Part shown: positions 7,250-61,664 of the stretch, piece by piece
How positions within the stretch are numbered: position 1 is the first letter of the stretch
Layout: every line of letters begins with the position of its first letter
Source of the DNA: Psammoneis japonica
Lineage: Eukaryota
Assembly: GCA_008632985.1 (NCBI GenBank)
Contig: QPGO01000028.1
Span: forward strand, 62,001 to 126,000
DNA: 64,000 bases
Direction of reading: 5' to 3'
Notes under the pieces: generated by a model
What the model was told of the DNA's origin: nothing
Databases searched by the model: none
What the model saw: the letters and a program-made list of their open reading frames with translations, nothing else
Translations under genes and position numbers: made by a program

Positions 7250-10200
7250 GTTTTGGCGATGGCTTGTGTGGTTGAAGCCGTTGCAACCATCCATCAGAAT
7301 GGCATGGATGCGGCAGATGTGGCACTTCCATTGGGTCATGATGGATGCAAGACCTCCACTGGTTTGTGATGGTTGAGAGCTTGTGCCAGCAGAGCCACCA
7401 AGACGGGGGCAGAGCACCACCAGCCGCACAAGAAGAAAGAAGATGAGACGCAGCAGAGACACGCTGCCTCCCACACTGCGTTGTGCAGTGGTTGCTCAAG
7501 TTTAAGACTTGAGCCACTTGCCATGCCAAGCCCCACACAATCAAACCATCATGAGATTTTCTGCAGGAATTCCATGATGTCTGCAGTCTTCTTGCTCTTG
7601 GGGCACATTGTCTTTTCGCCTTCAGCAGCTCTTGAGCATGTTGTGAAAAAGCCACAAGCCATCACAATTTCTGTTTGATCATGCTGAAACTTCTCATTCA
7701 GAGCCCTTTTGGGCCACCAATGACATCAAACAGCACAGCAACACAGTGTTGTCACTTTGAGAAGCTGCGAGCTGCTTGAATTTTGACTGCAAGATCTGCT
7801 GAGATGACAAAACAAGAAAGTGTTGTTTTCACATCTCTGCCACATCCTTGCTTTTTCATGTGATGTTGGCCAGCACAACAGAGAAGTTTTCCTGGGTTTT
7901 CCTTGAAATGACAAGCTCACATTTTGTCTCATGCTTCATGTTGTTGCCCACTTCATTGAGAAGAGTGTCGCCACCACATCTTCAATTGTGGCACAGGGAG
8001 GGCATGTTGCTGCAGTTGCAAACAGCACATCTGTTGGGAGGTCAATCTGCGTGTCATTGCACATCAGCACTTGCATGCACAAAAGATGTGTGCAACTGGA
8101 AAGAGCAACCAATCTGTCATTGTTGTGGCCACTTTTCTGGCTGGCTGGCCAGGCATCTCTTGACCCCTTTCTGCCACAACATCTGGGTGTGGCGGCAACA
8201 AGCGGCAAAAGGCAGCAGCTTTTGGCACTCACTCCTCCACTGTGACACCGGAACTTGACAAAGCAACATTGGTTCTCCTCACACAAATGGCGTGCATGCA
8301 CAAAAACCTGGTTTGTGGGGCCACACTGCTGCCAGCACACCGCAGCTGACCAAACTTTTTTCCTTCTCCATCCACCACCACTGGCTGCTGGTGGTGCCCA
8401 TCACCAAGCACAAGCTTGCTCTGAGCTGCAAAGGGCCAAAGCTGCATGCAATGCCTCATCATGGTGGGCAGTGCACTGGCTGCTCAGTCTGCTTGGTTGC
8501 TGCACAGCATGCTGCTGCTTTGTTGTTCTTTTGCACTGCTGCCCCATGCTGCCAGCTTTTCTCATCCCCCTTGCTGGAGTCACAGCAGTGCTCACAAGCT
8601 CACCAGGTGCCAGGTGCAAGAGCTCTTACATGGGAGGGCAGATCAGACAAAAAGATGGAACAGGAGTGGAGGTGTTGTTGGCCAAAGAATGGCGCTGGCC
8701 TTTCTTGGCAATGGCAGTGGCAAGATTTGCACTTTCAAATGGGGGGTCAGCAACAAGGTGTCATTGATCAGCAATGTGAGTGTTTTGCTCATGCTCTCAG
8801 TCCAGGTCTTCTTGAAAGTTGGAGAAAAATTTTCCACTGAAGCTTCCAGTGGGTGTTGACTTCCAACAATGATCCAATCAAATTTCATTGTCTTCTCAGG
8901 ATGACAGTGCAAATTGAAGTGCAGCTTTCATGCCTGCAATCACCTTCTGTGTGCAAATTGACAATGCAGTGGTTTTCATGAATCAGCGGAGTCATTTGTT
9001 TCTTGTCACATCTCAAAAGAAAGAGTGCTGCGTTCCAGACTTTTCATCCTCTTCCTGACAATCCTTTTGCCTGAGCATCATCATTGATGTGTGCAAATCC
9101 CCTCACCTCCATTGGCCATTGTTGGTCCCACTGCACCTCCCATTTCTTCATGTCACCAGCCCCAATCTGCCATTGCTTCCAAAATGTGAGCAAACATGAA
9201 GTCATTCTACAAAAGGCAAACTGAGTCAATGTGCTCACTGTGGCAACTTTTTCAACAAATGTGTTGAGCTCGAAACTGCACACACCAACCTTGCTCATAG
9301 ATTCATCCTCAACAGCTGTCATTTGACAGACAAGCTCCACATCAAATCTGCAGGCTTCATCACAAGGCAGCATTTTTCAGTCGGGATCTGTTTTTGGTCT
9401 AACTCTGGATTTCAATGGCAGACATTTGCTCACAGCAAGATTGTGCTTGTGATCACATGGCAGTCTGCTCTGTGTTGAACTGTCTGTGTCTCCATCATGT
9501 CCACAAGTGTGGTCAATCCCTCCCTTGAATTGTTGGAGCTGTGAGTGCTTCCCATTCATTGCCCTTGCCATCACTGTCAGAGTTGACATTCCACCCATTT
9601 TTTGCTCCCCCAGCTGTCACCTTGAGATGCTTCACAAGCGTTTCTCAAGTGCTGCCCACATCCAATCCGGCTGCATCAAGCTTCCTGTGCATCACAGCAA
9701 CACTCATCTTTGCCGCCACATTGTCCTTGATGTCTGCCTGGTCAAAGGCCCCAGACTGAAACTCTGCTGTCATCAACTCCCTCAGATGTCTGGGCAAATC
9801 AAGGTCCTTGAAAGCTTTGGTCCTTGCCACTTCTTCCTTGTTGGACACAAAGTGGTTGAGAGCAGCTTCCTTGAGCTGGGCACAATTTCTGCTGTCTGTG
9901 TGGAGAAGCACACTTGTGACATTGTCGTTTGTGATTGAGGAATCTGCCAGCTTGGCTTCAAGTTGAAGCTTGAGGGCAGCACAACAAAACTTTTGTTGGC
10001 AAGATCAAGAAGGGAGATTTTGTGTCTTTTGCCCATGTCAATGTCCTCAGGAAGCTCATCAAGACAAACATGCTTCAGGAAAGACAAAATGACTGAACTT
10101 TCAACCTCATCAATCATGATGGTCTTCTTTTCTTTGTTCGATTCACACTGAAATGTTTTCGCAAAACCCGGGGCCTGCATGGCAAGAATTGATTTGTGTG

Positions 10201-12450
10201 TCTGAAAAGCTTTGTCACCAAGAACAGCAAGGGCATTGTCCCAGAAGTCTCTTGACTCAAACAACTTTTTCATGTCCTTCATGAAGGTGCCAGTGGGACA
10301 CCAAGTGATTTTCCTGCTGAGACCAATTGGAAGCCTTTGTGGTGAGTGCTCCATCATTTGGGCGACCTTCAAAAGCATCAAGCACCTTGGATTGTTTCAC
10401 AATCCACAGCGGCAAGGTCAAGCTGTTAGCTCTGACAGTCACATTTGGCTTTGATGGAACAAGACCATTTTCCCCTGCTTGCAACATGCACTTCATGTCA
10501 ACTTTTCCAAGCACATGATCCAGCTCAAGAGCAGTCACATGCACTGCATGCAATTTGATCCCCATTTCCTTCCACACTGGAGGCCTCATCTCAGTGTAGA
10601 AACAGCTTCACCTGAAAAACTCACAACCATGGCAAGAAAGCAATGGGGAGAGGATGCACTCTCCTTGGCACAAATGGTGTGCATGGGGGAGAATGTCTTT
10701 TTGCATCCAACGTCAACAGACACAGCGATTTGTTCTTCTCTTGCCATGGTGAAAATCCAATCATTGACACATGATTGTGATGTGGTGGTGCTGCAGCAGG
10801 TTTTCTGTCATGAGGAAGCACCCCTGAGCAGGGGGGCAGCATGTCATCCATGCAAAGGTGCAAAGGTTTGTGCACACATGGAATTGGGCATGCTGTCCCA
10901 TGCAAAATGTCAGCCCAAATCATGCACGAAACCCCAGCATGACACGCTGCATGACGACAACCCCGTGATGGGCCAAAAACATGATTCATCCACAGCTTGC
11001 TCCAAACTTCTCTCTTTCCTCTTGCTGTGAAGCTCCAGTGAAGACCCCAAGGGGCACCAGCATGTGTGCAGTTCCAACCGAGGTTGATGTGGTTGCACAG
11101 CATTCTTGTCTTTGTGCATGGCCACAAAAGGCAGCAACAGCACGGCAGTGACCATGCAGCAGCTTGCATTGCAGATTGCACCAGAAATGATGCTTTGGGT
11201 GTGTGATGTCATTGGAGTTGCTGCTGGCAGCAGAAGATGAAGTGAAAAGCAAAAACAGTTGCTGTGCTTGGACCAGCAATGAGCTGGGGAGGAGCAGGGG
11301 TGCTGCCGGCAACTTTTTTGCATGAGCTCTGCAAAGCTGCCAACAACTGCCAAGTTTCTTTGTCAGCTGTTTGACAAAAAAAGCTGTCTGGTGTTCAACA
11401 AGAGACAAACAGGGCTCAACAAGAGCCCCCAGTTGGAAAATGTCATTGCCCCAGCAGCAAAGAGCCTCTTTTTGCATTTGTCATTTCTCATTGACCAGCA
11501 GCTCTTGCTCACCCCAACAAATGGCAACTTTGTTTTGCAGCATCAAAAACTGGGCAAGAAGCTCCCAGTGTGCATCCTGTGTTGACCCTTCACACATGAT
11601 GTGACACATGCATGATGGCTGGTCACCGCGTGCTTGTCATGAGCCATGCTTTCAATGCACGTGCTCACATGTCATCAGCTGCCTCTGTGGACAGCCAACA
11701 GATGCACAACAGTGGCATTGCTGCACTGTTGCCACAGGTGTTTGCTGTGGCCCTCTCTCAGTTGTTGCCCATGCGGTGCTCCAGCTCCAGTTGGGACACT
11801 TCTGGACACCTTTGAAAGGGCACTTGTTGCTTCTTGAAGAACTGGCCACTCAATTTCAAAAATTTCAACAAAGGAAATTGTGCCAGTGCACAAACAGTGA
11901 TGCCATCATTTGTGGTCTGTCAAAACTTTTTTCAATTTTTTGAAATTCAAAAAACTGGCTCAATGACAAGATGTCTCAAAAAATGCCTCAAATCACTCGA
12001 CTTCACTTCACCTGGCTGGGAGAGCTGGAGCACACTCCCCTTCTCCCCTGCCAAAGCCACAGTGCTTGCAAGCTCACCTCTGGCCAGGCAGCAGTCCCAT
12101 GCTGTGTGGAAGAAGTCACCCTCTCTGTCCTGGCCAGCTTCTCTCTGGGGAAGGGGGTGCTGCACTGGGGCGAGAGCAGAGCAGAGCAGATGACCATCGT
12201 GGACACAGAGGGTGTCTGGCATCCAAAGAGAGCTTTTCTTGGTCTTCTCGCTGTGAGCTCTCTCTTGTCCGGAGCACTCACTCAGAGGAGTTGCAGCCAA
12301 GCCGTTCACGATTGTCTTGACTGACCAAACACACATGACCCGAGAAAATTCCTGAGACTTTGTCAATGCGCTTGGAGCGAGCCGAACAAAGCAAGCTGGG
12401 CGGGCGAAAAGATCATTTGGCAATTTCGATCAGTCCATGTAAAAGATTCC
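7250..12450. other. TpA-depleted (and CpG-depleted) degenerate block 1
   Basis: TA is nearly absent and TG/CA is in excess, with many overlapping Cys/His-rich spurious ORFs. Contains a decayed MATH-BTB copy. Edges are approximate. Confidence 0.85.
9580..10590 (-). pseudogene. Heavily decayed MATH-BTB paralogue
   Basis: Frameshifted fragments match the intact copies: FQTHKSILAMQAPGFAKTFQCES, LKHVCLDELP, DSRNCAQLKEAALNHF and MHRKLDAAGLDVGST. Confidence 0.85.
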
Positions 12451-17973: not shown

Positions 17974-19604
17974 GGTGTGCGCCGCTTTTCGTTCGCGTTG
18001 TGCTACCGGAGGACTCAACCGGTCCCGGCGTCCGTGACTGAAATTTCACCACGGTGAAGCACGAGAGTCGAATAATTCGATTGGACTCAACCGTCCGATT
18101 TTGCATTGAAAACGGCTGTTGTACTTTGATGCATCTCGCCATGGCATACATCGTTGGGTCGATGTATCTTTCATGTGGGATCTTTTTCTATCGTTGTTAT
18201 AAAGAGGTTGATGCATTGGTTTGGTTTCCTGGGGGGCTTTGGTGGCGACACACGGTACAAACGGTTGCGTGCCTCGACTCGTGACTCGATTGCTGCACGG
18301 TACGGGTGACATCTGAATGGTCGACAACGTTGCCGTGGTAAGTTCTTTCTGTGTTTTCTCATTTTATACCGTTTATCTACTCACTGAAGATGTTGTTTGT
18401 GCTTTGTTACAGCTTCATAGGAGGATATATCGTCTCGTACGGTCGATTATTGCATCTGCAATATTGGCATCTTTTTCACGTCGTCGTCATCACAAAAGCG
18501 CATCCGTTTGGGAGCCTTGTGCTTCATCCCACTCCACATCTTTTGGTACATCTATTTTTACTATTTATTTGGACTTGTGACAAGCTTGATATGTTTTTGA
18601 AGGTCTTGGTCGGCTCGTAATCACAGCATGTCGTTTTTCGGCGATAACAATTTCTTGAAAGTGCATGCCGTGGGAACAAAACGATGCGATGGAGTCTCGG
18701 GGATACTCACGACATTGGCATTTGTCAGACAGCCTTTCCATAGTCCAAAGAAGGTAACCCTGTGAGCATGTTGTGATTGATTGAGTTTTGGACTCGTTTT
18801 GACGAAACTTGCATACCTCACGAGCCTTTTTTGGTGTGTCTCGATCATGCGCACAGGTGTCTGGTCCTTTTTGACCCTTTCCACCTACCCTTCAACCGCA
18901 TTATCATCATTATCTAAGACGCAATATTGTCCACGTTATTTTGGGAGATCTTTGTGGTGTAACTACGACTCTAGGCTTTGCAATGGGTAAAATGGGAAGG
19001 TTGAGGCTTGTGTTGGCGGGTTCATCGCCTCCTCTTGAATGCGCAGATGCCACGAACCGCTGATGTTACTTGGGGGCATAAAAATTAGTAAGGCGACTCA
19101 GCTCTACATTTAAAAGGTGCCCTAGTGAGTATACTGTGACATGTAACCCCAATGGATTATTATTGTGTACGTTGTTCCACTCATATTTTCATTTTGCCTG
19201 TCATTTTCCAGTGTGACTGTCGTTGACCGTTAAAGCTTGCAGTGGCATTTCCAGGCCCATGTTCTACATGACAGATATCTTTTGATACTCTTTGCTCATA
19301 TGGGGAAATCAGATCCTGAGCACTCAGTTCCTAGTCGGGTGTAGAGAGGTACAAGTGCAATGGATGAAATTTGGACCAGGGCACAGATGGAGTTGGGGCG
19401 AACGTGCTGTTTCTTCTCGCTGGTAGAGTTAGTTAGTGTGGGTGTGCGTGCGGATGGCCTCTCTATTTAGGGCTACTACTCTCTAGAGTGCTACAGTGCC
19501 ACTCTAGAGTAGAACTTGGCGCAAAAGGTAAGAGATCAATTTTTTTGTGATTTTCGACTCGTCGCGGCATCTTCGGCGTTGTCCGTTGACGACGATAAGC
19601 AATC

Positions 19605-19813
19605 NNNNNNNNNNNNNNNNNNNNNNNNNNNNNNNNNNNNNNNNNNNNNNNNNNNNNNNNNNNNNNNNNNNNNNNNNNNNNNNNNNNNNNNNNNNNNNNN
19701 NNNNNNNNNNNNNNNNNNNNNNNNNNNNNNNNNNNNNNNNNNNNNNNNNNNNNNNNNNNNNNNNNNNNNNNNNNNNNNNNNNNNNNNNNNNNNNNNNNNN
19801 NNNNNNNNNNNNN
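19605..19813. other. Assembly gap (N run)
   Basis: 209 consecutive N. Confidence 1.
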
Positions 19814-19975
19814 AAAAAAGATCTTTTAGTTATAAATCTTAGGCGTGTGTGATTTGCAATCGAGCTATTGGCGCGCGCGCGCGGCGATCGACTCCATAAT
19901 TGCGCGTTCAATGCCGAGTTCAGAGTGCCGAGCGAGACGAAGACAGCAACAAGCAACAATAGACGACTATTCACC

Positions 19976-21199
19976 ATGGCGCAACAGCAGCAAGAACAAA
20001 TCGTAGATTCTGCAGTCTACGAGCTGTCGCCAAAGCACACCATCAGTTTCAGCATCAAAGATTTTGAAAATCTCTCACATGAACGTGGAGAGGACATTGT
20101 CTCGCCGGAACTTTCTTGCCATGGACATTTGTGGACAATCGCAGTGTATCCCCGTGGAAGCCCGCGTTCCAGCGAAAGCACAGTTCACGTCTCTGTCGTT
20201 TTGACACGTGAAAACATGCAGGACAATGAAACTGTGAAAGCAAAATTTTCATTTCGGGTAGGAAACAAGACGCGGTCGACAGAGATCGAGAGAGATTTTG
20301 TCAGTGAGTCGCTTGGGTGGGGGTGGACGGACTTTGTCGAGCGGAGCACTGTACTCGATCCTGCCGAGGGATATCTCGAGAATGGAGTTCTCACTGTCAA
20401 GGCTGACATTCAGATTGTACTTGTCGTCAAGCCTGAGATTTGGCGCCCCAGAGGCACGCTCCAAAAGGACGTCAAGGAGTTGTTTGAATCTATGGATTTC
20501 TCGGATGTTACCTTTTCTGTTGGCGGCCATAGCTTTCAGGCTCACAAGAACATTCTCGCCATGCGTGCTTCAGGACTTGCTGAAACATTCCAGTGTGAAT
20601 CTGGAAAAGACAAGGGTGAGGCCATTGTGATTGATGGATTTGATCCTTCGGTATTTCAGGCTTTTCTGCATCACGCGTACCTTGATGAGCTTCCCGGGGA
20701 TGCCGACACGTGCAAGGATGTCACGGCTCTTCTTGATCTTGCCGACAAGTTTGGTTGCACCAGTCTCAAGCTTTGCGCGGAAGCCAAGCTTGCAGAATCC
20801 TTTGTTTCAGATGACAACGTGATTGACATGATTCTAGATGCAGACAGCAAGAACTGTCCGTTGCTCAAGGAAGCTGCGCTCAAGTTTTTCGTTGACAACA
20901 AGGAGAAACTGATGAGGACCGAGGCTTTCCGCTCTATTGAATCACCCAGATTGCTCCAAGAGTTGATTGCAGCTGACTTTCAGGTTAGGGCCAATGACCA
21001 AGGAGCCAGTGTGGAAAACATGGGCGTTTCTACTCTTCGTAGGAAGCTTGATGAAGCCGGACACGACGTGGACGGCACTCGAGAAACGCTCGTAAAGCGT
21101 CTTAAAACGGCAGCGAATGCCGAGGGCGTGAAGGAATTGTCGGAAGAAAACTCCGACAGTGATGAAGAAAACTCCGACAGTGATGATGGAGATGAATAG
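19976..21199 (+). CDS. MATH-BTB/POZ (SPOP-like) protein, copy A
   Basis: MATH motifs (CHGHLWTIAVYPRG, GWGWTDFV, GVLTVKADI) and BTB motifs (FSDVTFSVGGHSFQAHKNILAMRA, LLDLADKFG), then LRRKLDEAGHDVDGTRETLVKRL and an acidic tail. Confidence 0.9.
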   Translation: MAQQQQEQIVDSAVYELSPKHTISFSIKDFENLSHERGEDIVSPELSCHGHLWTIAVYPRGSPRSSESTVHVSVVLTRENMQDNETVKAKFSFRVGNKTRSTEIERDFVSESLGWGWTDFVERSTVLDPAEGYLENGVLTVKADIQIVLVVKPEIWRPRGTLQKDVKELFESMDFSDVTFSVGGHSFQAHKNILAMRASGLAETFQCESGKDKGEAIVIDGFDPSVFQAFLHHAYLDELPGDADTCKDVTALLDLADKFGCTSLKLCAEAKLAESFVSDDNVIDMILDADSKNCPLLKEAALKFFVDNKEKLMRTEAFRSIESPRLLQELIAADFQVRANDQGASVENMGVSTLRRKLDEAGHDVDGTRETLVKRLKTAANAEGVKELSEENSDSDEENSDSDDGDE

Positions 21200-26717: not shown

Positions 26718-27932
26718 CTAAAAACGTGCCACCTGTTCATCTCCATCACTGTCGGAGGCTTCTTTTTCCGATTCATCGTCCACGCCCTCGTCATTCGCCA
26801 CCGTCTTGAGATGCTTTGCCAGCGTTTCTCGAGTGCCGTCCACGTCGTGTCCGGCTTCATCAAGCTTCCTACGAAGAGTGGAAACGCCCATGCTTTGCAC
26901 ACTGGCTCCTTGGTCATCGGCCCTGACCTGAAAGTCAGCTGCAAACAACTCTTGAAGCAATCTGGGTGATTTGATGGAGCGGAATGCCTCGGTCCTAATC
27001 AGTTTCTCTTTGTCATCAATGAAATGCTTGAGCGCAACTTCCTTGAGCAATGCACAGTTCTTGCTGTCTGCATGGAGAATCATGTCGATTACATTGTCGT
27101 CAGTGATGGAGGATTCTGCCAGCTTCGCTTCTGCGTGAAGCTTGAAACTAGCGCAACCAAACTTGTCGGCAAGATCAAGAAGAGCCACTCCATCTTTGCC
27201 CATGTCAGCATCCGCGGGAAGCTCATCGAGGTGCACGCAGTGTGGAAAAGACTGAAACAGCGAAGGATCGACTCCATCAATCACAATGGCCTTGCCCTTG
27301 TCTTTTCTAGACTCACACTGGAATGTTTCAGCAAATCCTGGAGCCCGCCTGGCGAGAAGGCCCTTGTGCGCCTGGAAGCTTTGGCTGCCAACAGAAAAGG
27401 TGACATCCGAGAAATCCACAAATTCAAACAACTTCTTGACGTCCTTTTGGAGCGTGCCTCTGGGGCGCCAAATCTCAGGCTGGACAAGTGCAATCTGAAT
27501 GTCGGCCTTGACGGTGAGAACTCCATTCTCGAGACATCCCTCTGCAGGATCGAGCACAGTGCTCCGCTCGACAAAGTCTGCCCACCCCCACGCATTGATT
27601 TCTTCTTTCATCACCGTCGACACCATCTCTCTTCCCACCCGAAATGAGAATTTTGCACAATCAGGTTCGCGATCCTGCATGTTTGCCCGTCTCAAAAACA
27701 TGGAGACATGAACAGTGCTTTTGCTGGATCGCTTGCATCCACGGGGATGCACTTCAATTTGCCACAGACGCCCATGGCAAGAAAGCTCCAGTGAGATGAT
27801 TTTCTCTCCACGTTGCTGCGAGAGATTTTCGAAATCTGGGATGCTGACACTGATGGTGTGCTTTGGAGACAGCACTTCACTGCTCCCCATGACCGCAGAA
27901 GCTACGATGATTCGTTCTCACTGTTGCGCCAT
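26718..27932 (-). pseudogene. MATH-BTB copy B, hypermutated with its frame largely intact
   Basis: The homologous ATG at 27932 is followed by TGA at codon 5. The 390-aa ORF from 27890 contains no Tyr. The paralogues' TAG stop reads CAG here (26735-26733). Confidence 0.8.
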
Positions 27933-40969: not shown

Positions 40970-42166
40970 CTATTCGTCACCTTCACTGTCGGAGCTTTCT
41001 TCCGACCCATCGTTCATGCCCTCGGCATTCGTTACCGTCTTGAGACGCTTAACAAGCGTTTCTCGAGTGCCGTCCACGTCGTGTCCGGCTTCGTCGAGCT
41101 TCATACGAAGAGTGGAAACGCCCATGCTTTCCACATTAGCTCCTTCTTGGTCAAATTCTCTGAGCTGAACCTCAGCTGTAATTAGCTCTTGGAGCAATCT
41201 GGGTGATTCAATGGAGCGGAATGCATTGCTCCTCGTCACTTTTTCTTTGTTGTCAATGAAATGTTTGAGCGCTACTTCCTTGAGCAACGCACAGTTCTTG
41301 CTGTCTGCAATGAGAATCATGTCGATGACGTTGTCGTCTGCAATGAAGGATTCTGCCAGCTTTGCTTCTGCATGAAGCTTGAGACTAGTGCAACCAAACT
41401 TGTCAGCGACATCAAGAAGAGCCATTCCATCTTTGCCCATGTCAGCATCCGCGGGAAGCTCATCGAGGTACACGTAATGCAGAAAAGACTGAAACACCGA
41501 AGGATCGAACTCATCAATCACAATGGCCTCACCTTTGTCTTTTGTAGACTCACACTGAAAGATTTCTGCAAATCCTGGAGCCCGCATGGCGAGAATGTTC
41601 TTGTGAGCCTGAAAGCTGTGGCCACCAACAGAAAAGGTAACATCCGAGAAATCCATAGATTCAAACAACTTCTTGACGTCCTTTTGGAACGTGCCTCTGG
41701 GGCACCAAAGCTTGGGCTGGACAAGTGCAATCTGAATGTCGGCCTTGACGGTAAGAACTCCATTCTCGGGATGTCCCTCAGCAGGATCGAGCACATTGCT
41801 CCGCTCGGCAAAGTCGCTATACCCCCAACAATTGAACTCTTCCTTCATCACCGTCGACACCGTCTTTCTTCCCACCCGAAATGAGAATTTTGCGTCAACT
41901 GGTTTGCGATCCTGCATGTTCACCCGTCTCAAAAAGATGGAGACATGAACAGTGCTTTCGTTGGATTGCGTGTCTCCACGGGGATACACTTCAATTTCCC
42001 ACAAATGCCCATGGCAAGAAAGCTCCGGCGAGATGATTCTATCTCCGCGTTGCTGCGAGAGATTTTCAAAATCTGGGATGCTGACACTGATGGTGTGCTT
42101 TGGAGACCACACCTTTTTACTCCCAATGACTGCAGAAGCTACGATTCGTTCCTGTTGTTGCGCCAT
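40970..42166 (-). CDS. MATH-BTB/POZ protein, copy C
   Basis: Intact ORF from ATG 42166 (MAQQQERIVAS), with the same domains as copy A. Confidence 0.88.
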   Translation of the reverse strand: MAQQQERIVASAVIGSKKVWSPKHTISVSIPDFENLSQQRGDRIISPELSCHGHLWEIEVYPRGDTQSNESTVHVSIFLRRVNMQDRKPVDAKFSFRVGRKTVSTVMKEEFNCWGYSDFAERSNVLDPAEGHPENGVLTVKADIQIALVQPKLWCPRGTFQKDVKKLFESMDFSDVTFSVGGHSFQAHKNILAMRAPGFAEIFQCESTKDKGEAIVIDEFDPSVFQSFLHYVYLDELPADADMGKDGMALLDVADKFGCTSLKLHAEAKLAESFIADDNVIDMILIADSKNCALLKEVALKHFIDNKEKVTRSNAFRSIESPRLLQELITAEVQLREFDQEGANVESMGVSTLRMKLDEAGHDVDGTRETLVKRLKTVTNAEGMNDGSEESSDSEGDE

Positions 42167-42299
42167 GGTGAAGTCGTCTTTATTCTCGCGCTGTCGTAGC
42201 GACACATAGATTTTGGAATTTTGATGCGAAGTTTTTGCGAGGCGAGGCAGTGTGGATGGACGGACGGACGGACGGTGAGAATGTCAGCACAAGCACATG

Positions 42300-48701: not shown

Positions 48702-50295
48702 TGTTGTTTCTACTTATGGATGCAACCTGAATGGCTTTGTCAACAGAACAAAGGCGACTTTTTTCGTTTTATGCGTTTGAGTTTGAAAAAGACTTTTTGC
48801 AAAGCTTTGGCAGCTCGGCATTCCCAATGTAGGGAGGGTTTGGTATAAATGGGTTGACCCTGCATGATGGATGGATGCGGTGAAATGAAACTGTTGACCT
48901 TCTGCAGAACCCACGCATCATGCGGCGCTGTAGGTAAATAAATTTGGAAATCCAAAATTGCACTGCGTGAAATTTCGGACAGTGCGTACAGACGCGGGCG
49001 CGACACGCACACACGACGCGACACACGTACACGTGTGACGCGTGACGCACCACAGGGACAATGGAGCAAGCTCCGACCATGACATGGTGTGCAAACGGTG
49101 ACGAATACTTCGTGCCCATTTGATGCCCCATCCCGAAACAAAATCCGTGGACATCATCCATGGCTGCAGCAGCTTCCTGTCTGAGCAAGTCTCCTCGTGA
49201 TTGCTTTCACAAGATGGGCGAAATTTTTGGCTGTGGTGCAAGATCAACAAATCAGAGCCATCAAAAGTGTCAAGTGGCAGCAGTGGCAGCAGGATCCAAG
49301 GTCCATCATCGACTGCCACAACAAACAAAACAAAGAATGCAGCACTGAGGCAAGGTCATCTTTTTGCTAAAGAAACAAGCAAGTCAGGCTGCTGCTGCTC
49401 CCAAGCAAACTCCTGCAACAGGGGGAGGATCTGTGCGTCGTTGTGGGTGTCGATGCAAAGAATCGCATCATTGTTGCCCGATTCTTCTTCAAGACATCAT
49501 GGAGAACCAAATGGAATCACTGCTTCAACAAAAGAAACATTGCAACACAACAAAGCCAACAAAAAACTGGAAGAACGCACTGTGCTCCAAGAGGCTGAGA
49601 TTTGGTTTCATGATGAGAACGGGTGCACACCCACAATGAAGAGCACATGATGCAAAGCAATTGTCGAGGGGAGAGATTTGTCAATCTCGGTGGAATGTTC
49701 CATCTTTGCCAAAATGGCCACTTGGTGCATTTCTTTCATGGGGTGCAACTCCTCGTGACAAAAACAAGAGAAGCTCTGCTGCACTTGGGACGAATCTGCA
49801 ATTCCTGCTGCTGCCACTCTGAACACTGCTGCCACTGTTGGCAGAGCTTCACTTGGCAATCGCTCCACAATTGCAGCTGAACAACTGCCACTACACACAG
49901 CATGTGATTGGCATTTGCACATCTCAATTGTTGGGCAAAAGTCAGTGATTTGACAACCCCCCGAACACCAGCCCAGTTTCTGCTGAGTCGCATGCGCTGC
50001 ACGCCAAATTCTTTGACACCCCCGAACACCAAAACAAGCACATGGGCTGAGTCCTGGCTCCTTGGGGAACCAGCTGAATTGGTGAATGATTTTGGCAATG
50101 GATTGAACACCACAAAGGCCAACACTGTGGATCACTTGCCAGCTCAATGAGGGCCAATGGGTGTCATGTGATTGATGCAGTCGCGTGCAAACAAGGGGAG
50201 GTTTTTGTGCACTTTTTCATCATCTGTGGGCGCAACACTCAAATTGGATCTGGTGCTGTGTGGGCAACCTCAAGCAGTGACAGTTTGTTGGGGCT

Positions 50296-50484
50296 TGCAA
50301 GATCCAGCTTGAGATGACTTGACACAAAACAGGTTTTGAGAGAACCAAGAAGGGGGAGCCGATCACCGCAATTGCTGATCGGAGCTGACTTCTGACAGCC
50401 TCTTGAACATCTGATGCATTGGTTGATGTGCACATGTCAGAGGGGGCACACTCGGTCATGGAGTGCATGTGCCCATGTCACTCA
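50296..50484 (-). repeat. 3' LTR (hypermutated)
   Basis: Aligns to the 5' LTR once the MITE is removed; contains no TA. Confidence 0.9.
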
Positions 50485-50599
50485 CTCTTCCCCTCCATGG
50501 TGCAAGAATCATGTGCACCATTGGAACCACTTGACTCAAATTTAAACTCCAATGCGCACGGAGAAGGGAACCCAGATGTTGGGAAGAAACCCTCAACTC

Positions 50600-53500
50600 T
50601 GATGCGGCACATGCTTGCAGCACCGAAACTGTCCCACTGGCGTGGACTTGTGCAATTTGAAACTGACCGCGAGCTTGAGCTTCGAGCTTTGCTGGATCCA
50701 CAGACTTGATTGACACATCTTTTCCCACAAGATAATTGCAAGAATGACGCTTTGCGTTCTGTCGTCACAGGTTTTTGTTGATGAGCACTTGACGGTTGGC
50801 TTGAATGGCAGCAAGATTGGAGAGAACAGAGATGGATCCAAAATCACATCATGTTGGAATGCCAAAGCTCCACTTGAGACACCCATGGACCTTGAATGAG
50901 AGCATCGTAATGCAAAAGAGGCTGTGGCAAGGGCATCATCCATGATCTGCTTGGCCTGTTGAATGTTCAAAGGTGGGTCAGCAGCAACCACAGTTTGCAA
51001 AATGTTGGCCACTGTTTGGTGCATTTGTTCACAAATGGAGTTGGCTGCAGGACTCCGTGAGGTCATTGGAGCATCTTCGACACCGGCCTGGTTCAATGTC
51101 ACCTGAAATTCCCAACCAATGAATTCACCACCGTCATCATGGATGCATCGATTTGGTCTGGGACAATGAGCCAACCAGAGGTTGCGGAACTTGTTGGTGA
51201 TGTGTTGAGAAGTTTTGTTGTCAATGCGCACAAGTTCAGTCAGGCCAGTGACAGTGTCAACACAAGTGAGGGCACTGAATTCAATCTCTTGATCTTGAAT
51301 CGGCATTTTCCATGGCCCAATGAGATCAACTGCCACTTCCGACCATGGAGCTGATGGTGCTTGGTGTTCAGGCAATTCTCCATGTCCCGGACCAAGTTGT
51401 TTGAAGTGTTGACAGGTGTCACACACAAGCTCATTACAATGCCAATGCAATGCAGGATGACACATGTGAGTGCAAATGCTCTTGTACAAACAAACAACTC
51501 CACAATGGTCCAATGCACGATGATGCCATGTGAGCATGTCAGGCAACAATGCAGTCGGAGTGCAAATTTTCCATGCTCCAGGCAGATCATTCAAGTGCAA
51601 ATGACAACACATGATGGGATGATGGTTCACAATCTTGACCACGAATTGCTGCGGGTTCTGTTGTCTCTGCTGATTCAGTTGCTGGTCCTCAAACTGGAGC
51701 TGTTGCATCCGTGACATCTTGGTGGGACTCGGCATTTTGTTCAATGTCAGACATTTTAAAAAGCATTCAAACAGCTCAGGCTCATCAAGCAGAGAAGAAA
51801 AGGTGTGAGACTCATCAGAGGGATCAACAGGAGCATGGCAACACTTGAACCTGCAAGTGCCCAACTCCAATTCTTCTTCTTCCTTGGCCTTGCTCAATTC
51901 ACTGCTGTTTTCAACTTTTCAAAATGAATGATTTTTCCTTTGCCTTTGCCACTTGGCCCAAGGCTCTTCCCCTCCAAAGGCAGACCCACATGTGGAAGAC
52001 AAGAAAAACAATTGGTGAGCATGTTGTCAGATGCCAGCAAAGGACATGCTGTGCATTCAAGGTGCAAAAGGTGAGATTTTTATGGTCAGTGTGAACAGCA
52101 ATGTTGGCACCACTGAGCAACATTGTGCGAAATTCTTTGAAGCACATGACAACAGCAAGGAGTTCCTTCTCCATGGTTGAACAGTTGTGTTGAGCTGCTG
52201 AGAGCTTTTTGGACCAATGTGCTGCTGGTTTGCCATCTTGGGTGATGGCTGTGCCCATCTGGCAGTCGGATGCATTGGTGCAAACATGGAATGGTGGGTT
52301 GTGGTTGGGACAGGCCATCAGAGCTTCCACCGCAATCACTGCTTTTATTTTCTTCAAATGCTTTCTGACACACATCTGACCAATGGAACTGGCTCTTGCC
52401 TGTCAACTCCCTGACGACGAGGCCACATGTTGCAACAACAGGTCACTGCACCAAGAAATGAGCAAAGTTGCATGGCATTCCGTGGAGGCTGCATCCAGGG
52501 AACAGCTTCAACCTTTTTCTTCCACGGTTTGACGCCAGTTGGAGTGAGCCAATGCCCCAGGAAATCCATCTCTTGGACACACCACTTGCGTTTTAATGGG
52601 TTGACTTTCAATCCATTCTCCTCAAGATGATGCAACACCTTGTCAAGATGAGAGAGATGACAATCAAAGTCAGCATCAAATGCGCCAATGTCATCGACAC
52701 AAGTTTCAACATCCAAACCATGTGTGATTTTCTCAATGACAGACTGAGCAATGTCTGGAGCTGGCTTCAATCTCACGGCCATGTGGCAGTGTTGGAACTT
52801 TCCGCAGGGAGTTGCAATTGCAGCCAGCTCCTTGCTTTTGTCGTCCAATTTCAAGTTGCAGTGGAACATGGTGAGATCAAGTTTCGTAAAGAATTTGAAG
52901 CCCGCCATTCACTGTGGCACATCTTGGACAACCGGCAAGGGATGGACTTTCTGCTTGAGCACCTCGTTTGGTTCACAGAAGTCAGACACCCATCGCACTT
53001 GCCCGTCCTTCTTTGGAGTGATGAAAGCACCGGCTGCCCATTCTGCAGGTCCACATGGTCGCAAGACTCCCAGGTCCACCAAATGCTTCAGCTCCTTTTT
53101 GAATGCTTCTTCATCAACTCGAGCAACAGGAAAAGGTTTTGAGTGACAGGGTGCAGCATTTTCTTCCACCTCCAGGTGTGCCTTTTCATGAGGACAGTGA
53201 CCCAAAGTTCCGTCAAACAAGGTTGAGCATTTCTCCAACACCACTGGCAGCTTCATCTTTTGCTCTTCTGTCAGGTGATCCAGGTTGCAAACCACTTCCG
53301 CAGGATCCATTGCTTTGCACTTGGCATCCAGCATGTGGCCATCACACCCATCATCATGTCCACAGTCTGATTTGTCCTTGCAGTCTTCATCAAATTCATC
53401 CATCTGATCTAGAGCAACATGCCAGTTGCAGGGTTTTGATGATGAGGCTCCTTCATTGGAATTGTGTGGTCCAGCCAATGCAGAGTTCTTGCATCGCAGT

Positions 53501-53900
53501 TCAAGTGGAGTCCAATCTTGTCCAAGAAATCTCAACCCAAAATGACATCATGCGCACATGGAGCACAAAAAACATGAGCGACACAACCGTCAACCCTCCA
53601 AGTCTCTTGTCGAATTCTGGCAGCACAGTGTGTCACTCAGAGCTGCCCAACGACCCGATTGGAAAGGACCTGCTGTGGATTGAAAAGCTTGCACTCCATG
53701 TTCATCAATGGATGGCACGGCCCCACGAGGTGAAACTTGAGAAGAGATCACAGTGTGAGAGCCACCAGAATCAAACAGCACACGCATCTCATGATTCAAT
53801 TCATGACATTGGACTGATTTGGCAACAAGCAGTGTTGATGGGACCAATGCGGTGCATGAAACTTGCAAACCCATTTTGGGGAGAGGAACATCACATTCAA
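50600..53900 (-). pseudogene. Gypsy pol (protease, RT, RNase H, integrase), frameshifted
   Basis: RVLFDSGGSHT (PR); FITPKKDGQVRWVSDF, TKLDL and ETCVDD (RT); FHVCTNASDCQMG and EKELLAVV (RH); WSEVAVDLIGPW, IHDDGGEF and PAANSICE (IN). Confidence 0.92.
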
Positions 53901-55679
53901 GTGCATCTTGATCAAATGCGTCCCCCTCTTCATTCGTGCAATTTTCTGCAGTGTCTTCAAATTCAACAGGAGACAATTCATCAGGATTTTCAAAACAATC
54001 AAAGGCAAAACTTCCAGGCACATTTTCAGGAACAATGCACTCATTTTCAACAAATGCTTCACATGTGGGCAATTGGGGGCATTCAGCTCCTTCTTCTCAG
54101 AACTGCCAAGGAAACTGCCCATCTGGCTGAAACCTCACCACACCTCCACAACGTGGAGGGCCTCGCCCGATCATGTCGAAATGGCGCACATCACCATGAG
54201 GAGCTTCTTGAGCCTGATTGTCATTCACATCATCTGCTTGAGCAGCACAACGGTTGGCCTGACCTTGGCCACCACGATTGTCATTGTTGCTGCAACAATG
54301 CTGGCCACCACCACCTTGGTTGCCGCTGTTGTTCTGATTTCCATTGTTGTTGTTGTTGTTGCAATTGTTGCAGCAGGTGCCACACCCTCCTTGGTTTTGG
54401 TTGCCATGACCACCAAAGCGTCCACCACCACCACGGCCAGGACCACAGCCTCCTTGGAAGCAACCTCCACCCCTCGACCTCCACCGCCACGACCACCACC
54501 TCGACCGCCATGGTTTTGAGGTCCACGACAGTTGGGGTCATTTGGATCATCACAACACTGACCCCATGCATGTCTTCTATAATGCCACGAGACCAGACAT
54601 GGGTCACTGGCCTTCGGTTGACCCTTGCCATCCTTCTTGTCACGGTTGCCCTTCTTGTTGCTGGTGGTGGAGCTCCCTCCATTGCCATTGTTGGACTTGC
54701 GTTTCTTTTCTTGTTGTCCTGGCCATTGGCAAATGCCTTCTCATTCCACCATGGAATCTGGGACAAGATTCTTGCCCGCACGAATGTGGGGCTGCTGCCA
54801 GGTCAAAGGAAAGGTCGTGCAGAAGATGACATTTTTCTGCTCTTGCTCTGTGAGTTCAGGAACGGTTCCAGGCAAGCGGTCAGCATGACAAAATGGGGTT
54901 TCCATGCAATCAACATGAGTTTCAGATTCCGTGGAGTGAGGTTTCTTGCAAGCAGGCAAGCGCATCTTCTTCGCATCCTGAGCTGTCGGCTTCACACAAT
55001 GTGGACAGTGGGCCGAAATGGCTTGATTAAACCGAGCTGCCATCCTCTGATTCTGTTGGATGCCCGCTGTGATGTTCTGCCATTTTGCCTCCACAGCACC
55101 TTGTGGGCAATTCTCAACAGCATCAAAAAGTTATGTTCCGGCATCACAATCCAACTGTCTTGCCACCTTCTGAAAGCGCTCCTCCACGTGCAACAGTGGC
55201 TCAATTCCGCGTTCTCCTGCAAAAACAGGATGCATTTTTGAGAGTTTAGTTCTGTCATCAAAGGTTTGAGCAAGTTTCACTTCTTGCAATTCAGAGTCCA
55301 CAAATTTGGTTTTATGCTCAGTGCATGCTTTCTCCAAAGCTTCTTGATGCATGACGATGAACAATTTCAGCGATCAAAGAATCAACAGCCCACACAATGA
55401 ACGAAACAACGTGCTCCCAATTGATCCACACAACGAGAACAATCAACAACCAAACAACAACAAATTCAAGTGCAGCAATGTGGGACTTGAGTTCAAACAA
55501 ACGCTGCTCTGAATCGCCCCAATTTCACGAGCACAATTGTGCTGAGGCTCCGATTGATTTCCAACAAAATTTTCTGCACGAGCACCCAGACAAGCTTTCT
55601 CTCTTTTTGACAGCACTCTGTGCATTGTCATGAAATGGACAACGCAACAAGCAAGCTACAACAATGACTGTAATTACAG

Positions 55680-56196
55680 TGCAAGATCTAGCTTGAGATG
55701 ACTTGATAAAAAGGTTGTGAGAGAACCGAGAAGGGAACCGATCACCGCAATCGCTGATCGGAACTGACTTCTAACGGCCTCTTGAAATTTCAATGGGAAT
55801 CATTCGGGTCCTCAGAGTCATCACGTAGAAATTGTGTAGGACAGTACCAAAAATAATTATAATGAGTCTGTCCATCAGTCCGTATATGAATATCAACTTC
55901 TCGGCAAATCAATTGAAATGCTATCTGATCGACGGTATTTTGATTCACATAGTGAAGGCCAATGCCGTCGATCAGATAGCATTTCAATTCAGTTCCCGAA
56001 AAGTTATTAGCTCTAATCACTCTCTCGTATGACATTGTGTACATTTCTACACAATTTTGTGTTTTTCCTTATGTAAAATATTAATTATGACTCATGCGAC
56101 ATTTTCGAATGATTCCTATTGTAATGCGTTAGTTAAATACATAATATATCAGAGGGGGCACACTCGGTCATAGTGTACACGTGCCTATATCACTCA
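55680..56196 (-). repeat. 5' LTR (unmutated, carries a MITE insertion)
   Basis: On the + strand it reads TGCAAGATC...CACTCA and retains its TA and CG dinucleotides. Confidence 0.9.
55791..56121. mobile_element. ~331-bp foldback MITE inserted in the 5' LTR
   Basis: 16-bp TIRs CAATGGGAATCATTCG / CGAATGATTCCTATTG with 1 mismatch. Absent from the 3' LTR. Central 29-bp inverted repeat at 55911-55939 / 55961-55989. Confidence 0.8.
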
Positions 56197-56533
56197 GGGC
56201 TTGACTTGCCGAAAAGTCATTAGGGCTTATATCTTATTTCAGTGTGACATTATTTACATTTGACCATTCGGACATTTTCCAATGATTTACAGCATTGCTG
56301 TCTATGCGAATTTCATCTAAGAAGCGACCTCGCTCAGCGCGGTTCCGTCCGGCCTTCGTACGGGACCTTTCGAAAACCACTTGCACAAACATCACAAAAA
56401 TCGCACACCATGACGAGTGCCGCCGACGCGTCGTCGTGTAGCTCAACAACCGTTTAGCATTATCCAATGCCACTAATAGACTCGGTTACTCTTTCATCTC
56501 GGATCACTGGGGTAGCTTCAGTGTTGTCACAAA

Positions 56534-59500
56534 ATGTCACAACCATTGAAAAAAAGGCGTCGGAAAGTGCATGGCAAATCTTCTCCGTCAAACAGGGTCA
56601 CAGTCGATTGTGAGCTCGATGCACTTCATTTGACCATTAAGTCATGTACAGCTTGTGAGAATCAGATCTGTGCATGCATGGAAAGCTTTGTTGAGCTGGG
56701 TTGTGCTGGAAAATGTGCTCTTTGTGTCTCTTGCTGCGCCCGCTCCGTCGCGTTGAGAGGTTGTGACGTGACGTTGCACTGCTCGGTGTGCAGCAGTGAA
56801 ACAACTGACTTTGCCATGCATTCTGTTCATTTTGAGCAAGGACATGGTGGTGTCAAACCTGTTCAACAATCCTGTGCTGGTGCAGTCACTCCTCCGAATG
56901 CCAAGATGGATCCGGTTCGTCATTTCATGAGCAACAAGGAAACACCGGACCAACTCTTCGGAGGCAACGTCCATGTTACGTCATCAAGGATTCAAGATTA
57001 CGCCTCATTGACATTTGCTGGACACAAAGAGGATGGCGACATTGCTGTTGCATCAACTGTTCTTCCCACTTGCTCGCAGGAAGATTGGACGAGCGAAATG
57101 AAAGCATCGATTGAGAAAATCTTCAAGGTGTTTCACTCCATCCTCGTCACCCTTTGCCCGACAAAAAAATTTGATCCGCTGGAGATGTCGAATCGCTCAA
57201 CTTTGACAAACCTTGCCCACAATCAGAAATTTGTTCTGCTCAGATGTCTTCATGCCCTTGGGCATGGAGAAATCTTGGACGACAACATTCCCGCGGAGCA
57301 GGTTCTCAACCAGTCGAAAGCCTGGGACAAGCACTTGAAATGTGTCTTTGCTGCTGCTGACATGCCACTGCACCTTGGGAATGAACATGCAGGCGTCACA
57401 AAAACAATGGTTGGGAAGCAGCTGCTTGCGCAAGCAGCCCCAAGCACCGTCCACTCCGTTTTGAACAATTGTGGGATGGCACCCGCTAGAAGCACCGAGA
57501 ACAAGGGAATGCATGACCGAGTGCAACAACTCATCAAAGATGGAATTGATTTTGTGCACTTTTCAAAGCACTGCCACTTGACTGTGCATTTTGACAACCT
57601 TGGGCACAAGAGTCGTGGTGAAAATGTGGGACACAAACAGTCCATTCTCCGTGTTGTTGTAGAGACTTTGGTTGACGAGTTGAAGAAACACAGGATCTAT
57701 GACAAAGACAACCCACTCAGTCGGAGCAGTGAGACCTGGTCTCAGGAGATTCTGAAACCAGACTTTCCTGGTGCAAAAGAAATTGCGACGCCATCGGCAA
57801 AAGCGGCAGACCGTGTCGGCCAAGAATTGCTCCGTTTGCTGGAACATATGGTCAAATTGGAGAGTGACAGACAATTCGTGTCTCATGAAGAGGCAGAGAC
57901 CATTGTTTGGCTTCTAAAGAAGAGGACGGCCCATCGGGTGGAGGCAACCAAGCGCCAACGGCAGAAGACGACAACGAGAAAAGAACGTTGCTGGACATTA
58001 ACCTTGGAATCGAAGACCTGCCACTTCAGTTGGACTTGTCAACGGCTCATGCAAATGAGTTGCTTCTGTTGCACTCTATTTTTGTTCAAGAGCTGATCCT
58101 TGCCAATGGAAAGGATGATTCCGAAATTGCAAGTTGGGGGGGAGAGCCAACAATGAAACACGTGTCCATCACGAATGCATGTGATGGCGATCCCGCCATT
58201 GTCATGAACAATTTGAAGCGACAAAAAGCCAAGTTTGCGAACTGTTTTATTGCACCGCAGGGCTTCCACCTAGAGATGAAAAGCTTGAAACTTGATGGCC
58301 TGCTGTTGGGTCCGTGCCTCGTTGAGGAATTTTTTATGCTGCTTGGCCGCGACACTCCGGGCAAACTCAATTGGGCACTGAATCCCGGCGACCCGCGTCA
58401 AGCTGAAGAAGGACATGAGGCAATTCTCCATGCAATCTTTATAGACGCGACACGAGGCTGTGTTGAAACTCAAGCAGACGATTCTGATTCTGTGGAAGTT
58501 AGCCCCGTCGATGTGTTGGACCACATTCTTGGACGAGCTTTGAAGTGTCCAGCAATTCTTCGTTTGCTGGTGCATCTTCAATTAATTGTGACATTTTTTG
58601 TGCTGCAGCATGCCGAGAAGAATGCAGATGCGGAGGACTGTGAACTAGGTCTGAGGTTGATGGCAGTCTTTGCTTCAGCAGGACATGCAATTGGGTGCGT
58701 CTCTCTGACAGCCGACCAAATTCGCGATTTCTACTGTCACAGTGAAGCTCAGAAGAAAATGTGGATGCTGTCACTCTTCCGCAAAACTGTGAATGGCAAG
58801 AACCAGTGTGGAGACCGCTTTTTTGAGAACATTGTTGGTCATGCCAGATTACATTCGGGCAAGCATGTGTACAGCAACGATGACGCTAAGCACTGCAAAC
58901 GGATTCGCGAAGTCGCTGTGGAATCTAATAAAAATCAAAGCTGCAGGAAAATCAACAATGCTGCAGCAGCAGTCACTGGCCAAGAGGGTCCTCGTCAAAT
59001 GAAAGTGAATAAGTGGTTCTGCGAGTTATTGCTGTATCTACGAGATGTCAATTACTTTGGCAATGGTGCTCCGCGCGTCATCCCCGCCAAGCCATTTTCG
59101 AAACGTGGTCCGGTGTCAAGCTACCGTGAAGTTGAAGAACTAGACCTTGTTGGACCATCCGGGAGATCTGGTGATCCTCAGAGCTGCTTCATATTGTCCA
59201 CCGGGGAAAAGCGATTCGTTGAATACTTTGAAAAATTTATTGTAGATGGAGATCCATCTGATTGCTCTCGACCCGAGACGGGTGAAGAAGGAGTGGATCT
59301 TTCATTGATCCCACCAGAAGCGGACAAGAAGGACACCGCATTACAGGACGAGCTGAAACGATGCTGTTCCGAAGACTACAGCTTTCTGATGACTAGGGGT
59401 GTATACACTGTCCCAGAACTCGACAAGGAGCTTGCACATGTGAAAGGTGAAATAGAGTCCGAAAGATGGAAAGCAATCATGGCGGCGTACCCAAAACCGA

Positions 59501-59901
59501 TCAAAGGGAGTTTGAACAAGGCATCAAAAGTCCACCGACTTATGCTAGGAAGACAATCAATGCGAACAATAGATCCGAATTGGCCAGAGTTACGAAAAGA
59601 AGAGTACAAGGCAAATCGACAGTCTGAGAGGGTTACTGAAAATGCAGACTTTGAAGCAAAACTGAAAGCCGAGATCGATCAAGATATCTTCTCGGTTAAT
59701 CAAAATGTCCGTTCCCAGTTCATACGTAAGTATCCAATTGAATGCAAGCAGCGACATATTGATCCGTCTGCGGCTGTACCGCCCTCCCCTCCGTCTCGGG
59801 ATACTTCCTCCGCATACTCTGTACGATCGTCTGATGCATCTACTCGGTATGGGTTGACGGGATTTACTCAATCCCAATCCCCTGGCTATCAATTTTTCTA
59901 A
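56534..59901 (+). pseudogene. Academ/DUF6589-like transposase with one frameshift near 57905
   Basis: Overlapping ORFs 56534-58096 and 57907-59901. Motifs VHFDNL, ACDGDP, PQGFHLEMKSL and GDRFFEN occur in the order I recall for Academ-type DDE enzymes. N-terminal Cys cluster. Confidence 0.6.
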
Positions 59902-61189: not shown

Positions 61190-61664
61190 ATTTCAGCAAA
61201 TCTAAAACATGAACATGTACTTGAATACTGTTAGATCGTGTGTGCAAGGTTTGGTAGTTGTTATCATAAAAGTTATAGCGCTACACGACGACGCGTCGGC
61301 GGCACTCGTCATGGTGTGCGATTTTTGTGATGTTTTGTGCAAGTGGTTTTCGAAAGGTCCCGTACGAAGGCCGGACGGAACCGCGCTGAGCGAGGTCGCT
61401 TCTTAGATGAAATTTTTCGATCGATCGCCACCAGATCGCCACGAACAATTTTTGATGGATATTGATTATTATATATGGATGAATGTAGCATTTTCTGATG
61501 TCCGTTGAAAGCTTCCGTTTGAGCCAATCCTCTAACGGTTTTCCAATCCCTCTAACGGTTCTATGATTCTTTTTAACGGTTTCCGTTATTGTTTTCTAAG
61601 GATCAGTCCTCGCCACAATGTTCTCGTGTTCTTCACATTTTTGCATGAACAACGTTCTTTGATT

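Follow-up and report, generated by a model that had tools for sequence, protein, structure and literature searches.

In a 64,000-bp stretch of contig QPGO01000028.1 (hereafter the window), the two long terminal repeats (LTRs) of one Ty3/Gypsy retrotransposon at positions 50296-56196 differ sharply in the dinucleotide TA, which is absent from the 3' LTR and was retained in the 5' LTR. The change ran in one direction, postdated the insertion, was restricted to a tract, affected both strands alike and proceeded to saturation. We consider it likely, with good though not complete confidence, that resident chromosomal DNA was mutated from TA to TG or CA within one sharply bounded tract after the element had inserted. 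According to this scenario, the element would have inserted once, thereby duplicating GGGCT, and a later process acting on double-stranded chromosomal DNA would have turned TpA into TpG or CpA on both strands. This process would have affected positions 49030-55652, comprising 1.27 kb of the left flank, the 3' LTR and almost the entire interior, and would have stopped about 25 bp before the 5' LTR, which would consequently have kept its TA.

Judged by its termini and domain order, the element is a Ty3/Gypsy (Metaviridae) LTR retrotransposon encoded on the minus strand. Both LTRs run from TG to CA and have the 5-bp sequence GGGCT outside. The parts on which the comparison of the LTRs depends are the following:

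50291-50295, no strand, target-site duplication, left copy (GGGCT)
50296-50484, minus strand, 3' LTR, mutated copy of 189 bp (TA 0, CG 4, TG 22, CA 21)
50485-55679, minus strand, element interior, disrupted by stops and frameshifts
55657-55679, minus strand, primer-binding zone adjoining the 5' LTR, with three TA kept (55657, 55671 and 55675)
55680-56196, minus strand, 5' LTR, spared copy, in two pieces (55680-55795 and 56122-56196)
55796-56121, no strand, insert of 326 bp in the 5' LTR resembling a miniature inverted-repeat transposable element (MITE), with terminal inverted repeats and an internal palindrome (55895-56005)
56197-56201, no strand, target-site duplication, right copy (GGGCT)

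The LTRs were aligned after removal of the insert, which resulted in 184 aligned columns and 7 gap columns with 30 differences. Twelve of these differences represent TA in the 5' LTR against TG (7) or CA (5) in the 3' LTR, and a further five represent CG in the 5' LTR against TG (2) or CA (3). All 17 run the same way, with none in reverse (two-sided binomial p = 1.5e-5); the CG differences alone amount to 5:0 (p = 0.06). The remainder consists of eight other transitions, five of them being A in the 5' LTR and G in the 3' LTR (including both GGAAC/GGAGC sites), and five transversions. Within the limits used in the initial annotation, 14 TA are located in the 5' LTR (55689, 55707, 55772, 56122, 56130, 56134, 56138, 56142, 56145, 56147, 56171, 56176, 56186 and 56188), whereas no TA occurs between 49892 and 50543 and, thus, none in the 3' LTR. 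When one copy of the insert's duplication is removed, the alignable part of the 5' LTR features 13 TA and 9 CG sites, of which 12 and 5, respectively, are changed in the 3' LTR.

These results agree in most respects with the initial annotation, which had reported 14 TA against none; the recount returned the same figures, and the GGGCT duplication on both sides as well as the two 28-mers quoted for 56169-56196 and 50457-50484 were recovered. Its labels for the LTRs are also correct, since the genes lie on the minus strand and the right LTR is therefore the 5' LTR and the left one the 3' LTR. However, CG changes had been described as making up most of the other differences, while they account for only 5 of the 18 differences that are not at TA. 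The two GGAAC/GGAGC sites, which had been taken as signs of a WA motif, do exist, but the motif itself could not be upheld, as AAC>AGC at two sites was its sole basis, and neither AA/TT nor AAC/GTT is depleted in TA-poor tracts (tract-to-outside ratios of 0.94 and 0.95, respectively).

Furthermore, both LTRs carry C at the corresponding positions 55745 and 50366, where all 18 other contigs of run X1 covering the site have G, and share one TG where two contigs of this run that bridge the insert site read TA. The GGGCT duplication and the private C indicate that the LTRs are sisters of one insertion and that their differences arose later, and the shared private variants speak against a recombinant origin of the element as well as a repair of the 5' LTR with another copy as donor. 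Such a repair by gene conversion would have required that both LTRs were mutated and that the 5' LTR was then restored from an unmutated LTR copy elsewhere. Donors would have been available in principle, the family being multi-copy (2,612 contig pieces in run X1 at a likeness of at least 80%), and a conversion tract would naturally have stopped near the limit of LTR homology. Nevertheless, this course of events is very improbable given the private variants mentioned above, because the 5' LTR also retains an insert that other copies are without (contigs of run X1 join 55786 directly to 56151) and because the unique right flank next to the 5' LTR is unmutated as well.

The insert itself shows a normal TA content and is flanked by the pentamers CAATG and TAATG, which possibly represent its target duplication. 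If so, one TA>CA change took place in the otherwise spared 5' LTR after the arrival of the insert. The flanks of the Gypsy element were also considered as two halves of a MITE copy, an idea that was abandoned: the top-scoring local alignment (56, with 43 as the maximum among the shuffles) lay 150 bp from the junction, and the right-flank match of 33 was within the range of the shuffles. BLAST searches with purine/pyrimidine-recoded sequences returned only noise at low stringency and were useful at high stringency.

The direction of change is a loss of TA, on which three lines of evidence agree. The coding regions used for this assessment are the following:

about 54621-55229, minus strand, gag (tblastn with relatives)
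about 53600-53900, minus strand, protease (tblastn with relatives)
52405-53334, minus strand, reverse transcriptase (RT; Pfam RVT_1), in which the YXDD motif reads CVDD
52028-52366, minus strand, RNase H (Pfam RT_RNaseH)
about 50558-51852, minus strand, integrase (tblastn with relatives)

The order gag, protease, RT, RNase H and integrase, obtained by tblastn with eight long relatives, is that of Ty3/Gypsy elements. RVT_1 and RT_RNaseH were detected by Pfam in minus-strand frames of the element, and its relatives feature RVP, RVT_1, RT_RNaseH, Integrase_H2C2 and rve, whereas the element's own integrase piece gave no Pfam match. The pol and gag frames contain a single Tyr in about 1,500 residues, accompanied by 5.8% Cys and 4.8% His, while Tyr accounts for 2-5% in the first 30 relatives listed, with the exception of P0010 (0.0%). 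For the consensus, the best 150 relatives from a full HMMER search were considered, and three with less than 1.5% Tyr were removed, leaving 147. In the 16 columns with a Tyr consensus, the element features Tyr in none, Cys in 8, His in 6 and Phe in 2. Most other consensus residues were kept at about 70-95% of their columns, lower retention being found for Ile (8/20), Met (2/5), Ser (6/10) and Arg (6/22). At the 22 Arg columns, the element has Arg in 6, His in 6, Cys in 5, Gln in 3 and Lys in 2, and the replacement of Arg by His, Cys or Gln is what decay of CG to CA or TG predicts.

The other copies of the family visible in run X1 point the same way. In the two contigs bridging the insert site, compared by eye, five of the positions with TG or CA in the 3' LTR read TA, and so does 55707 (CA in the 3' LTR) in a loose end of the run; this outgroup evidence covers a few dozen LTR positions, drawn from 40 of the about 1,300 differences in run X1. 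A reverse polarity, in which the TA-free state is original and a C>T process resembling repeat-induced point mutation (RIP) gave the 5' LTR and the right flank their TA, carries next to no probability. Pairwise comparison alone does not yield the direction, but conserved Tyr codons, including that of the YXDD motif, are gone from the interior, TA is present in other family copies, and the TA density of the 5' LTR and of the genes corresponds to the normal level of the window, with no excess. Moreover, the CG differences would require the opposite transition at the same time.

To delimit the affected DNA, tracts were called by two-state segmentation of TA against TG/CA. Nine TA-depleted tracts were obtained, which make up 38,183 of the 64,000 bp. 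TA reaches 0.35 per 100 bp in these tracts compared to 4.05 outside, an 11-fold reduction, and CG 1.98 compared to 5.44 (0.36 of the outside level). TG and CA together rise 1.49-fold, from 14.77 to 21.97 per 100 bp, which roughly offsets the loss of TA and CG. Trinucleotide contexts containing TA fall to 0.03-0.17 of their level outside, and the remaining dinucleotide shifts follow from the TA and CG conversions. The segments around the element are the following:

49030-55652, focal TA-depleted tract of 6,623 bp (TA 20, CG 152, TG 669, CA 770), containing 1.27 kb of left flank, the 3' LTR and nearly the whole interior
55653-56518, unmutated island between tracts, composed of the primer-binding zone, the 5' LTR including the insert, and 320 bp of right flank
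56519-58845, neighbouring tract of 2,327 bp, in which TA was lost (20 left) and CG kept (96)

At the right edge of the focal tract, the density of TG and CA is high up to about 55650. The interior retains 17 TA up to 55313 and none from there to 55656; TA is then back at the three sites of the primer-binding zone, 5-23 bp short of the 5' LTR. This zone has no obvious TGG start and contains a perfect 12-nt palindrome at 55668-55679 on the minus strand; at the opposite end of the interior, a purine run lies directly beside the 3' LTR. Within the left flank, positions 49000-50067 were covered at a depth of one contig at a likeness of at least 80% in run X1, where holes prove nothing, and a single contig of this run matches 49000-50323 with 0 differences. 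This left-flank sequence at single-contig depth was mutated all the same; the repeated 5' LTR was spared.

A sequencing or assembly artefact, such as systematic miscalls at modified bases, could produce a dinucleotide-specific and regional pattern of this kind. It is, however, extremely improbable, because contigs of run X1 agree with the sequence at all 1,324 bases compared in the TA-free flank and LTR start and at all 280 of an interior piece, although this run is possibly derived from the assembly's own sample. In addition, miscalling of the palindromic TA would not yield clean TG and CA with almost no TA or CG left, and paralogs and copies differ in their outcome at the same site.

The distribution of changes between the strands was evaluated on the sense strand of the element. 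A>G was counted 13 times (8 Tyr>Cys and 5 LTR sites) and T>C also 13 times (6 Tyr>His and 7 LTR sites), and both types of events are interleaved along the element. Such a 13:13 balance is in keeping with chromosomal DNA as the mutated substrate and not with editing in the course of reverse transcription. In the latter case, a deaminase would have edited this copy ahead of its integration, while it existed as single-stranded cDNA (or as RNA); plus-strand strong-stop DNA, which gives rise to the 5' LTR and primer-binding site, would have been spared, and the left flank would be an older, unrelated tract. In favour of this explanation, what was spared coincides exactly with the 5' LTR and about 25 bp of primer-binding zone, and the 3' LTR and interior are saturated alike. 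It is quite improbable nonetheless, since a strand asymmetry would be expected, the TA-free state runs unbroken into the left flank, and MATH-BTB gene copies and an inverted-repeat unit of the window (both described below) show the signature too. It would furthermore need an insertion at the edge of an existing tract in the right orientation, the last TA on the left being 400 bp and the first on the right 25 bp away. Finally, the same signature arises in resident chromosomal DNA of Bigelowiella natans, according to a preprint (Mettrop et al., bioRxiv 10.64898/2026.01.13.699255).

Several observations nevertheless weigh against mutation of resident DNA as the full account. No more than about 25 bp separate the edge of the tract from the inner end of the 5' LTR, a position that is unlikely for a freely placed edge and is predicted by the reverse-transcription model. 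The left flank could be older, separately mutated sequence instead of spill-over, and no recognizable gene or domain was found in the left flank, so that a spread into host DNA is unproven at this locus. A recognizable transposon protein was found in only one of the nine tracts. Furthermore, sites other than TA account for 18 of the 30 LTR differences, and the five transversions characterize the element as old; the pair thus reflects a protracted history rather than a single clean event.

With these reservations, in-place mutation of the chromosome after insertion is still considered the best account, and the corresponding proposals of the initial annotation were largely borne out. Mutation in place after insertion is supported by the matching 5-bp duplication and the private C common to both LTRs. 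Dependence on position rather than on sequence is indicated by the opposite fates of the same sequence 5.4 kb apart and by the unbroken continuation of the TA-free state into the 1.27-kb flank. As to whether the family consensus might match the TA-free LTR, the other copies carry TA at the positions visible. Its warning against LTR dating holds inside the tracts: the divergence of the pair amounts to 16.3% (30/184) in raw form, to 7.1% (13/184) once the 17 one-way TA and CG sites are removed, and to 2.7% (5/184) for transversions only, so LTR divergence is not a clock inside TA-free tracts.

By analogy with the proposal made for B. natans, the chemistry may be adenine-to-inosine deamination at TpA in DNA (bioRxiv 10.64898/2026.01.13.699255). 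Targeting would presumably track a silent-chromatin domain, whose edge would here coincide with the junction of the interior and the 5' LTR. Transcription-coupled targeting from the LTR promoter was considered and rejected, because the transcribed inner end of the 5' LTR keeps TA (55689, 55707 and 55772) and the untranscribed left flank is mutated. It is also conceivable, although we regard it as rather unlikely, that the placement of the edge at this junction is not due to chance and that the mutator was aimed by a signal covering the body and 3' end of the element and excluding the 5' LTR. Transcript- or small-RNA-guided silencing and a promoter-bound barrier are examples of candidate signals. 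If this were true, one LTR per element would be protected as a rule, and coding capacity would be destroyed while intact TA-bearing LTR promoters stay in the genome.

The loss of CpG appears to be a second, slower process nested in the loss of TA. CG loss is restricted to TA-free tracts and is one-way in the LTR pair. With increasing distance inward from the TA edge, CG at the 18 tract edges is as frequent as outside (5.8 per 100 bp) for the first 100 bp, drops to about 3 per 100 bp between 100 and 300 bp, and reaches about 2 deeper in the tracts. The sharpness of the TA edges is given by construction of the segmentation, but the lag of CG is not. Where both segmentations gave a tract, the CG edge was located inside the TA edge at 15 of 16 edges. 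These data would be accounted for by a TpA process that is fast, proceeds to saturation and covers a slightly wider domain, together with a slow decay of 5-methylcytosine in a methylated core, and CpG decay most likely represents ordinary 5-methylcytosine deamination in silenced, methylated sequence of this kind.

Alternatively, TpA and CpG may both have been targets of one enzyme that deaminated A in the former and C in the latter and thereby made all pyrimidine-purine steps converge on TG and CA. This would explain why CG was lost in the same tracts only and in one direction in the LTR pair, and ADAT2-type enzymes editing A and C in DNA are cited in the B. natans preprint. We consider a single enzyme unlikely, because the tract at 56519-58845 lost TA but not CG, CG remains at the outside level directly inside the TA edge and declines over about 300 bp, and the LTR sites were changed to different extents (12/13 TA compared to 5/9 CG), the one-way ratio for CG by itself giving p = 0.06. 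In addition, the rate of G:C>A:T in the hypermutated region of B. natans was about 170-fold below that of A:T>G:C, as stated in the same source (bioRxiv 10.64898/2026.01.13.699255).

The TA signature was also encountered in DNA other than retroelements. A cluster of MATH-BTB (SPOP-like) paralogs with varying TA loss is located at 9785-10396, 19853-21196, 26721-27917 and 40973-42283, and one copy retains a 399-aa open reading frame (ORF) with zero Tyr. In the protein alignment of these host-type paralogs, Tyr of one copy is replaced by His or Cys in others, and the same ancestral Tyr appears as His in one copy and as Cys in another, indicating that the signature reaches beyond retroelements. 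Only the protein alignment was informative here, as the DNA-level comparison of two paralogs was swamped by ordinary divergence (159 transversions). For a MATH-BTB gene near the element, the four highest-ranking protein-atlas clusters are most common in Bacillariophyta, so that the genome is probably that of a diatom. The window has 209 N in total, and 19501-20000 is its only 500-bp bin with N; this looks like an assembly gap adjoining a MATH-BTB gene.

A 143-bp inverted repeat, with arms at 56309-56450 and 61272-61414 that are 97.2% identical, encloses a unit of about 5.1 kb, and one of the arms lies in the right flank within the unmutated island. Long ORFs occur in this unit, in which Pfam detected no domain. 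The left half of the unit (56519-58845) combines a TA-free state with normal CG; the right half has a normal composition. The ORFs of the tract are Tyr-poor at this end, and Tyr is back beyond about 58,800, returning gradually along the ORF at 57889-59898. A subtilase gene, for which a protein-atlas comparison yielded no informative taxon, and other genes lie outside the tracts.

Only a single LTR element was found in the window. Neither a further copy of the element nor another Gypsy-like pol was found in the 64 kb by blastn and tblastn, and no other transposon domain was detected by Pfam in 81 ORF translations (8 + 41 + 32), most of which were taken from 84 ORFs of at least 150 aa. At position 50610 in the interior, other family copies in run X1 have 36 extra bases, and four variants of this stretch differ mostly at TA, TG, CA and CG steps; family copies were, thus, apparently mutated independently.

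The particular value of this locus is that the LTR pair represents a built-in before/after control: the two copies were identical at insertion and lie 5.4 kb apart, and one lost 12 of 13 TA sites, whereas the other lost none. This contrast indicates that the TA-erasing process acts on resident DNA and is aimed by place rather than by sequence, with edges sharp to tens of bases. The signature, known from one 2026 preprint on a rhizarian alga, is thereby extended to a probable diatom and to retrotransposons. The locus contributes a fully saturated next to a fully spared LTR in an old element (five transversions in 184 columns), an edge placed within tens of bases at the junction of the interior and the 5' LTR, and the nested CpG pattern. 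There are also practical consequences. Ages deduced from LTR divergence are several-fold too high inside the tracts, and homology-based transposon annotation fails there, as the integrase remains without a Pfam match and Tyr and Arg codons have been rewritten. TA>TG/CA never creates an in-frame stop and removes TAG and some TAA stops; for this reason, long spurious ORFs persist in the tracts in all frames, for example one of 712 aa at 53103-55241 on the plus strand, antisense to gag-pol, and constitute a trap for gene callers.

Among known systems, RIP in Neurospora and other fungi turns CpA into TpA and enriches TA. It is dense, consists of transitions only, is dinucleotide-specific and bounded, acts in place on mobile or duplicated DNA and may spill into flanks; it wrecks coding capacity and defeats molecular dating. 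The pattern described here resembles RIP in its logic, i.e. dense, dinucleotide-specific and regionally bounded transitions in place on mobile DNA, but is opposite in chemistry and outcome, since TA was destroyed and CA/TG enriched. Hyperediting by APOBEC3 or ADAR takes place before integration on single-stranded cDNA or RNA and leaves a one-strand bias, ADAR preferring a 5' U before the edited A. Deaminase-type transitions saturating a retroelement are common to these systems and the present case; in contrast to them, the changes here are balanced between strands, the LTRs differ, and the flank and non-retroelement DNA carry the signature. Decay of CpG in methylated transposons explains CG>TG/CA in the tract cores but cannot account for the absence of TA. 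Loss of DNMT5a in the diatom Phaeodactylum accompanies loss of DNA methylation and over-expression of young transposons (PMC9998398).

The closest counterpart is that of B. natans, whose preprint is the only description of regional TpA>TpG/CpA hypermutation found in the literature searched. No diatom case was found in this literature, which apart from the preprint yielded papers on fungal RIP and one candidate (PMC9258296) that turned out to be unrelated, and the words "CpG" and "diatom" are absent from the preprint text. According to the preprint, de novo TpA>TpG/CpA mutations in mutation-accumulation lines were limited to silent integrated viral DNA, the targets being integrated giant-virus and virophage DNA; they were almost exclusively A:T>G:C and arose at about 1e-7 to 1e-6 per site per generation, far from saturation. 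TpA-poor coding sequences were enriched in reverse-transcriptase and DDE domains, and a DNA adenine deaminase was proposed (bioRxiv 10.64898/2026.01.13.699255). Compared with that study, the present locus shares the change of TpA to TpG or CpA on both strands, seen in the LTR sites (TG 7, CA 5) as well as in the Tyr codons (Cys 8, His 6), and the confinement to bounded regions with unaffected neighbours, here nine tracts with genes outside and one tract with a proven transposon. It differs in that the window probably originates from a diatom, whereas B. natans is a chlorarachniophyte (Rhizaria), and in that a fossil, saturated record (TA 0.35 compared to 4.05 per 100 bp) takes the place of mutations seen arising in culture. 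Furthermore, CpG loss accompanies TA loss here and G:C>A:T is raised, with CG at 0.36 of the outside level and five LTR changes from CG to TG or CA, which probably reflects a separate, slower process. Finally, in contrast to B. natans, the LTR pair places the mutation after insertion and resolves its edge at the base-pair scale.

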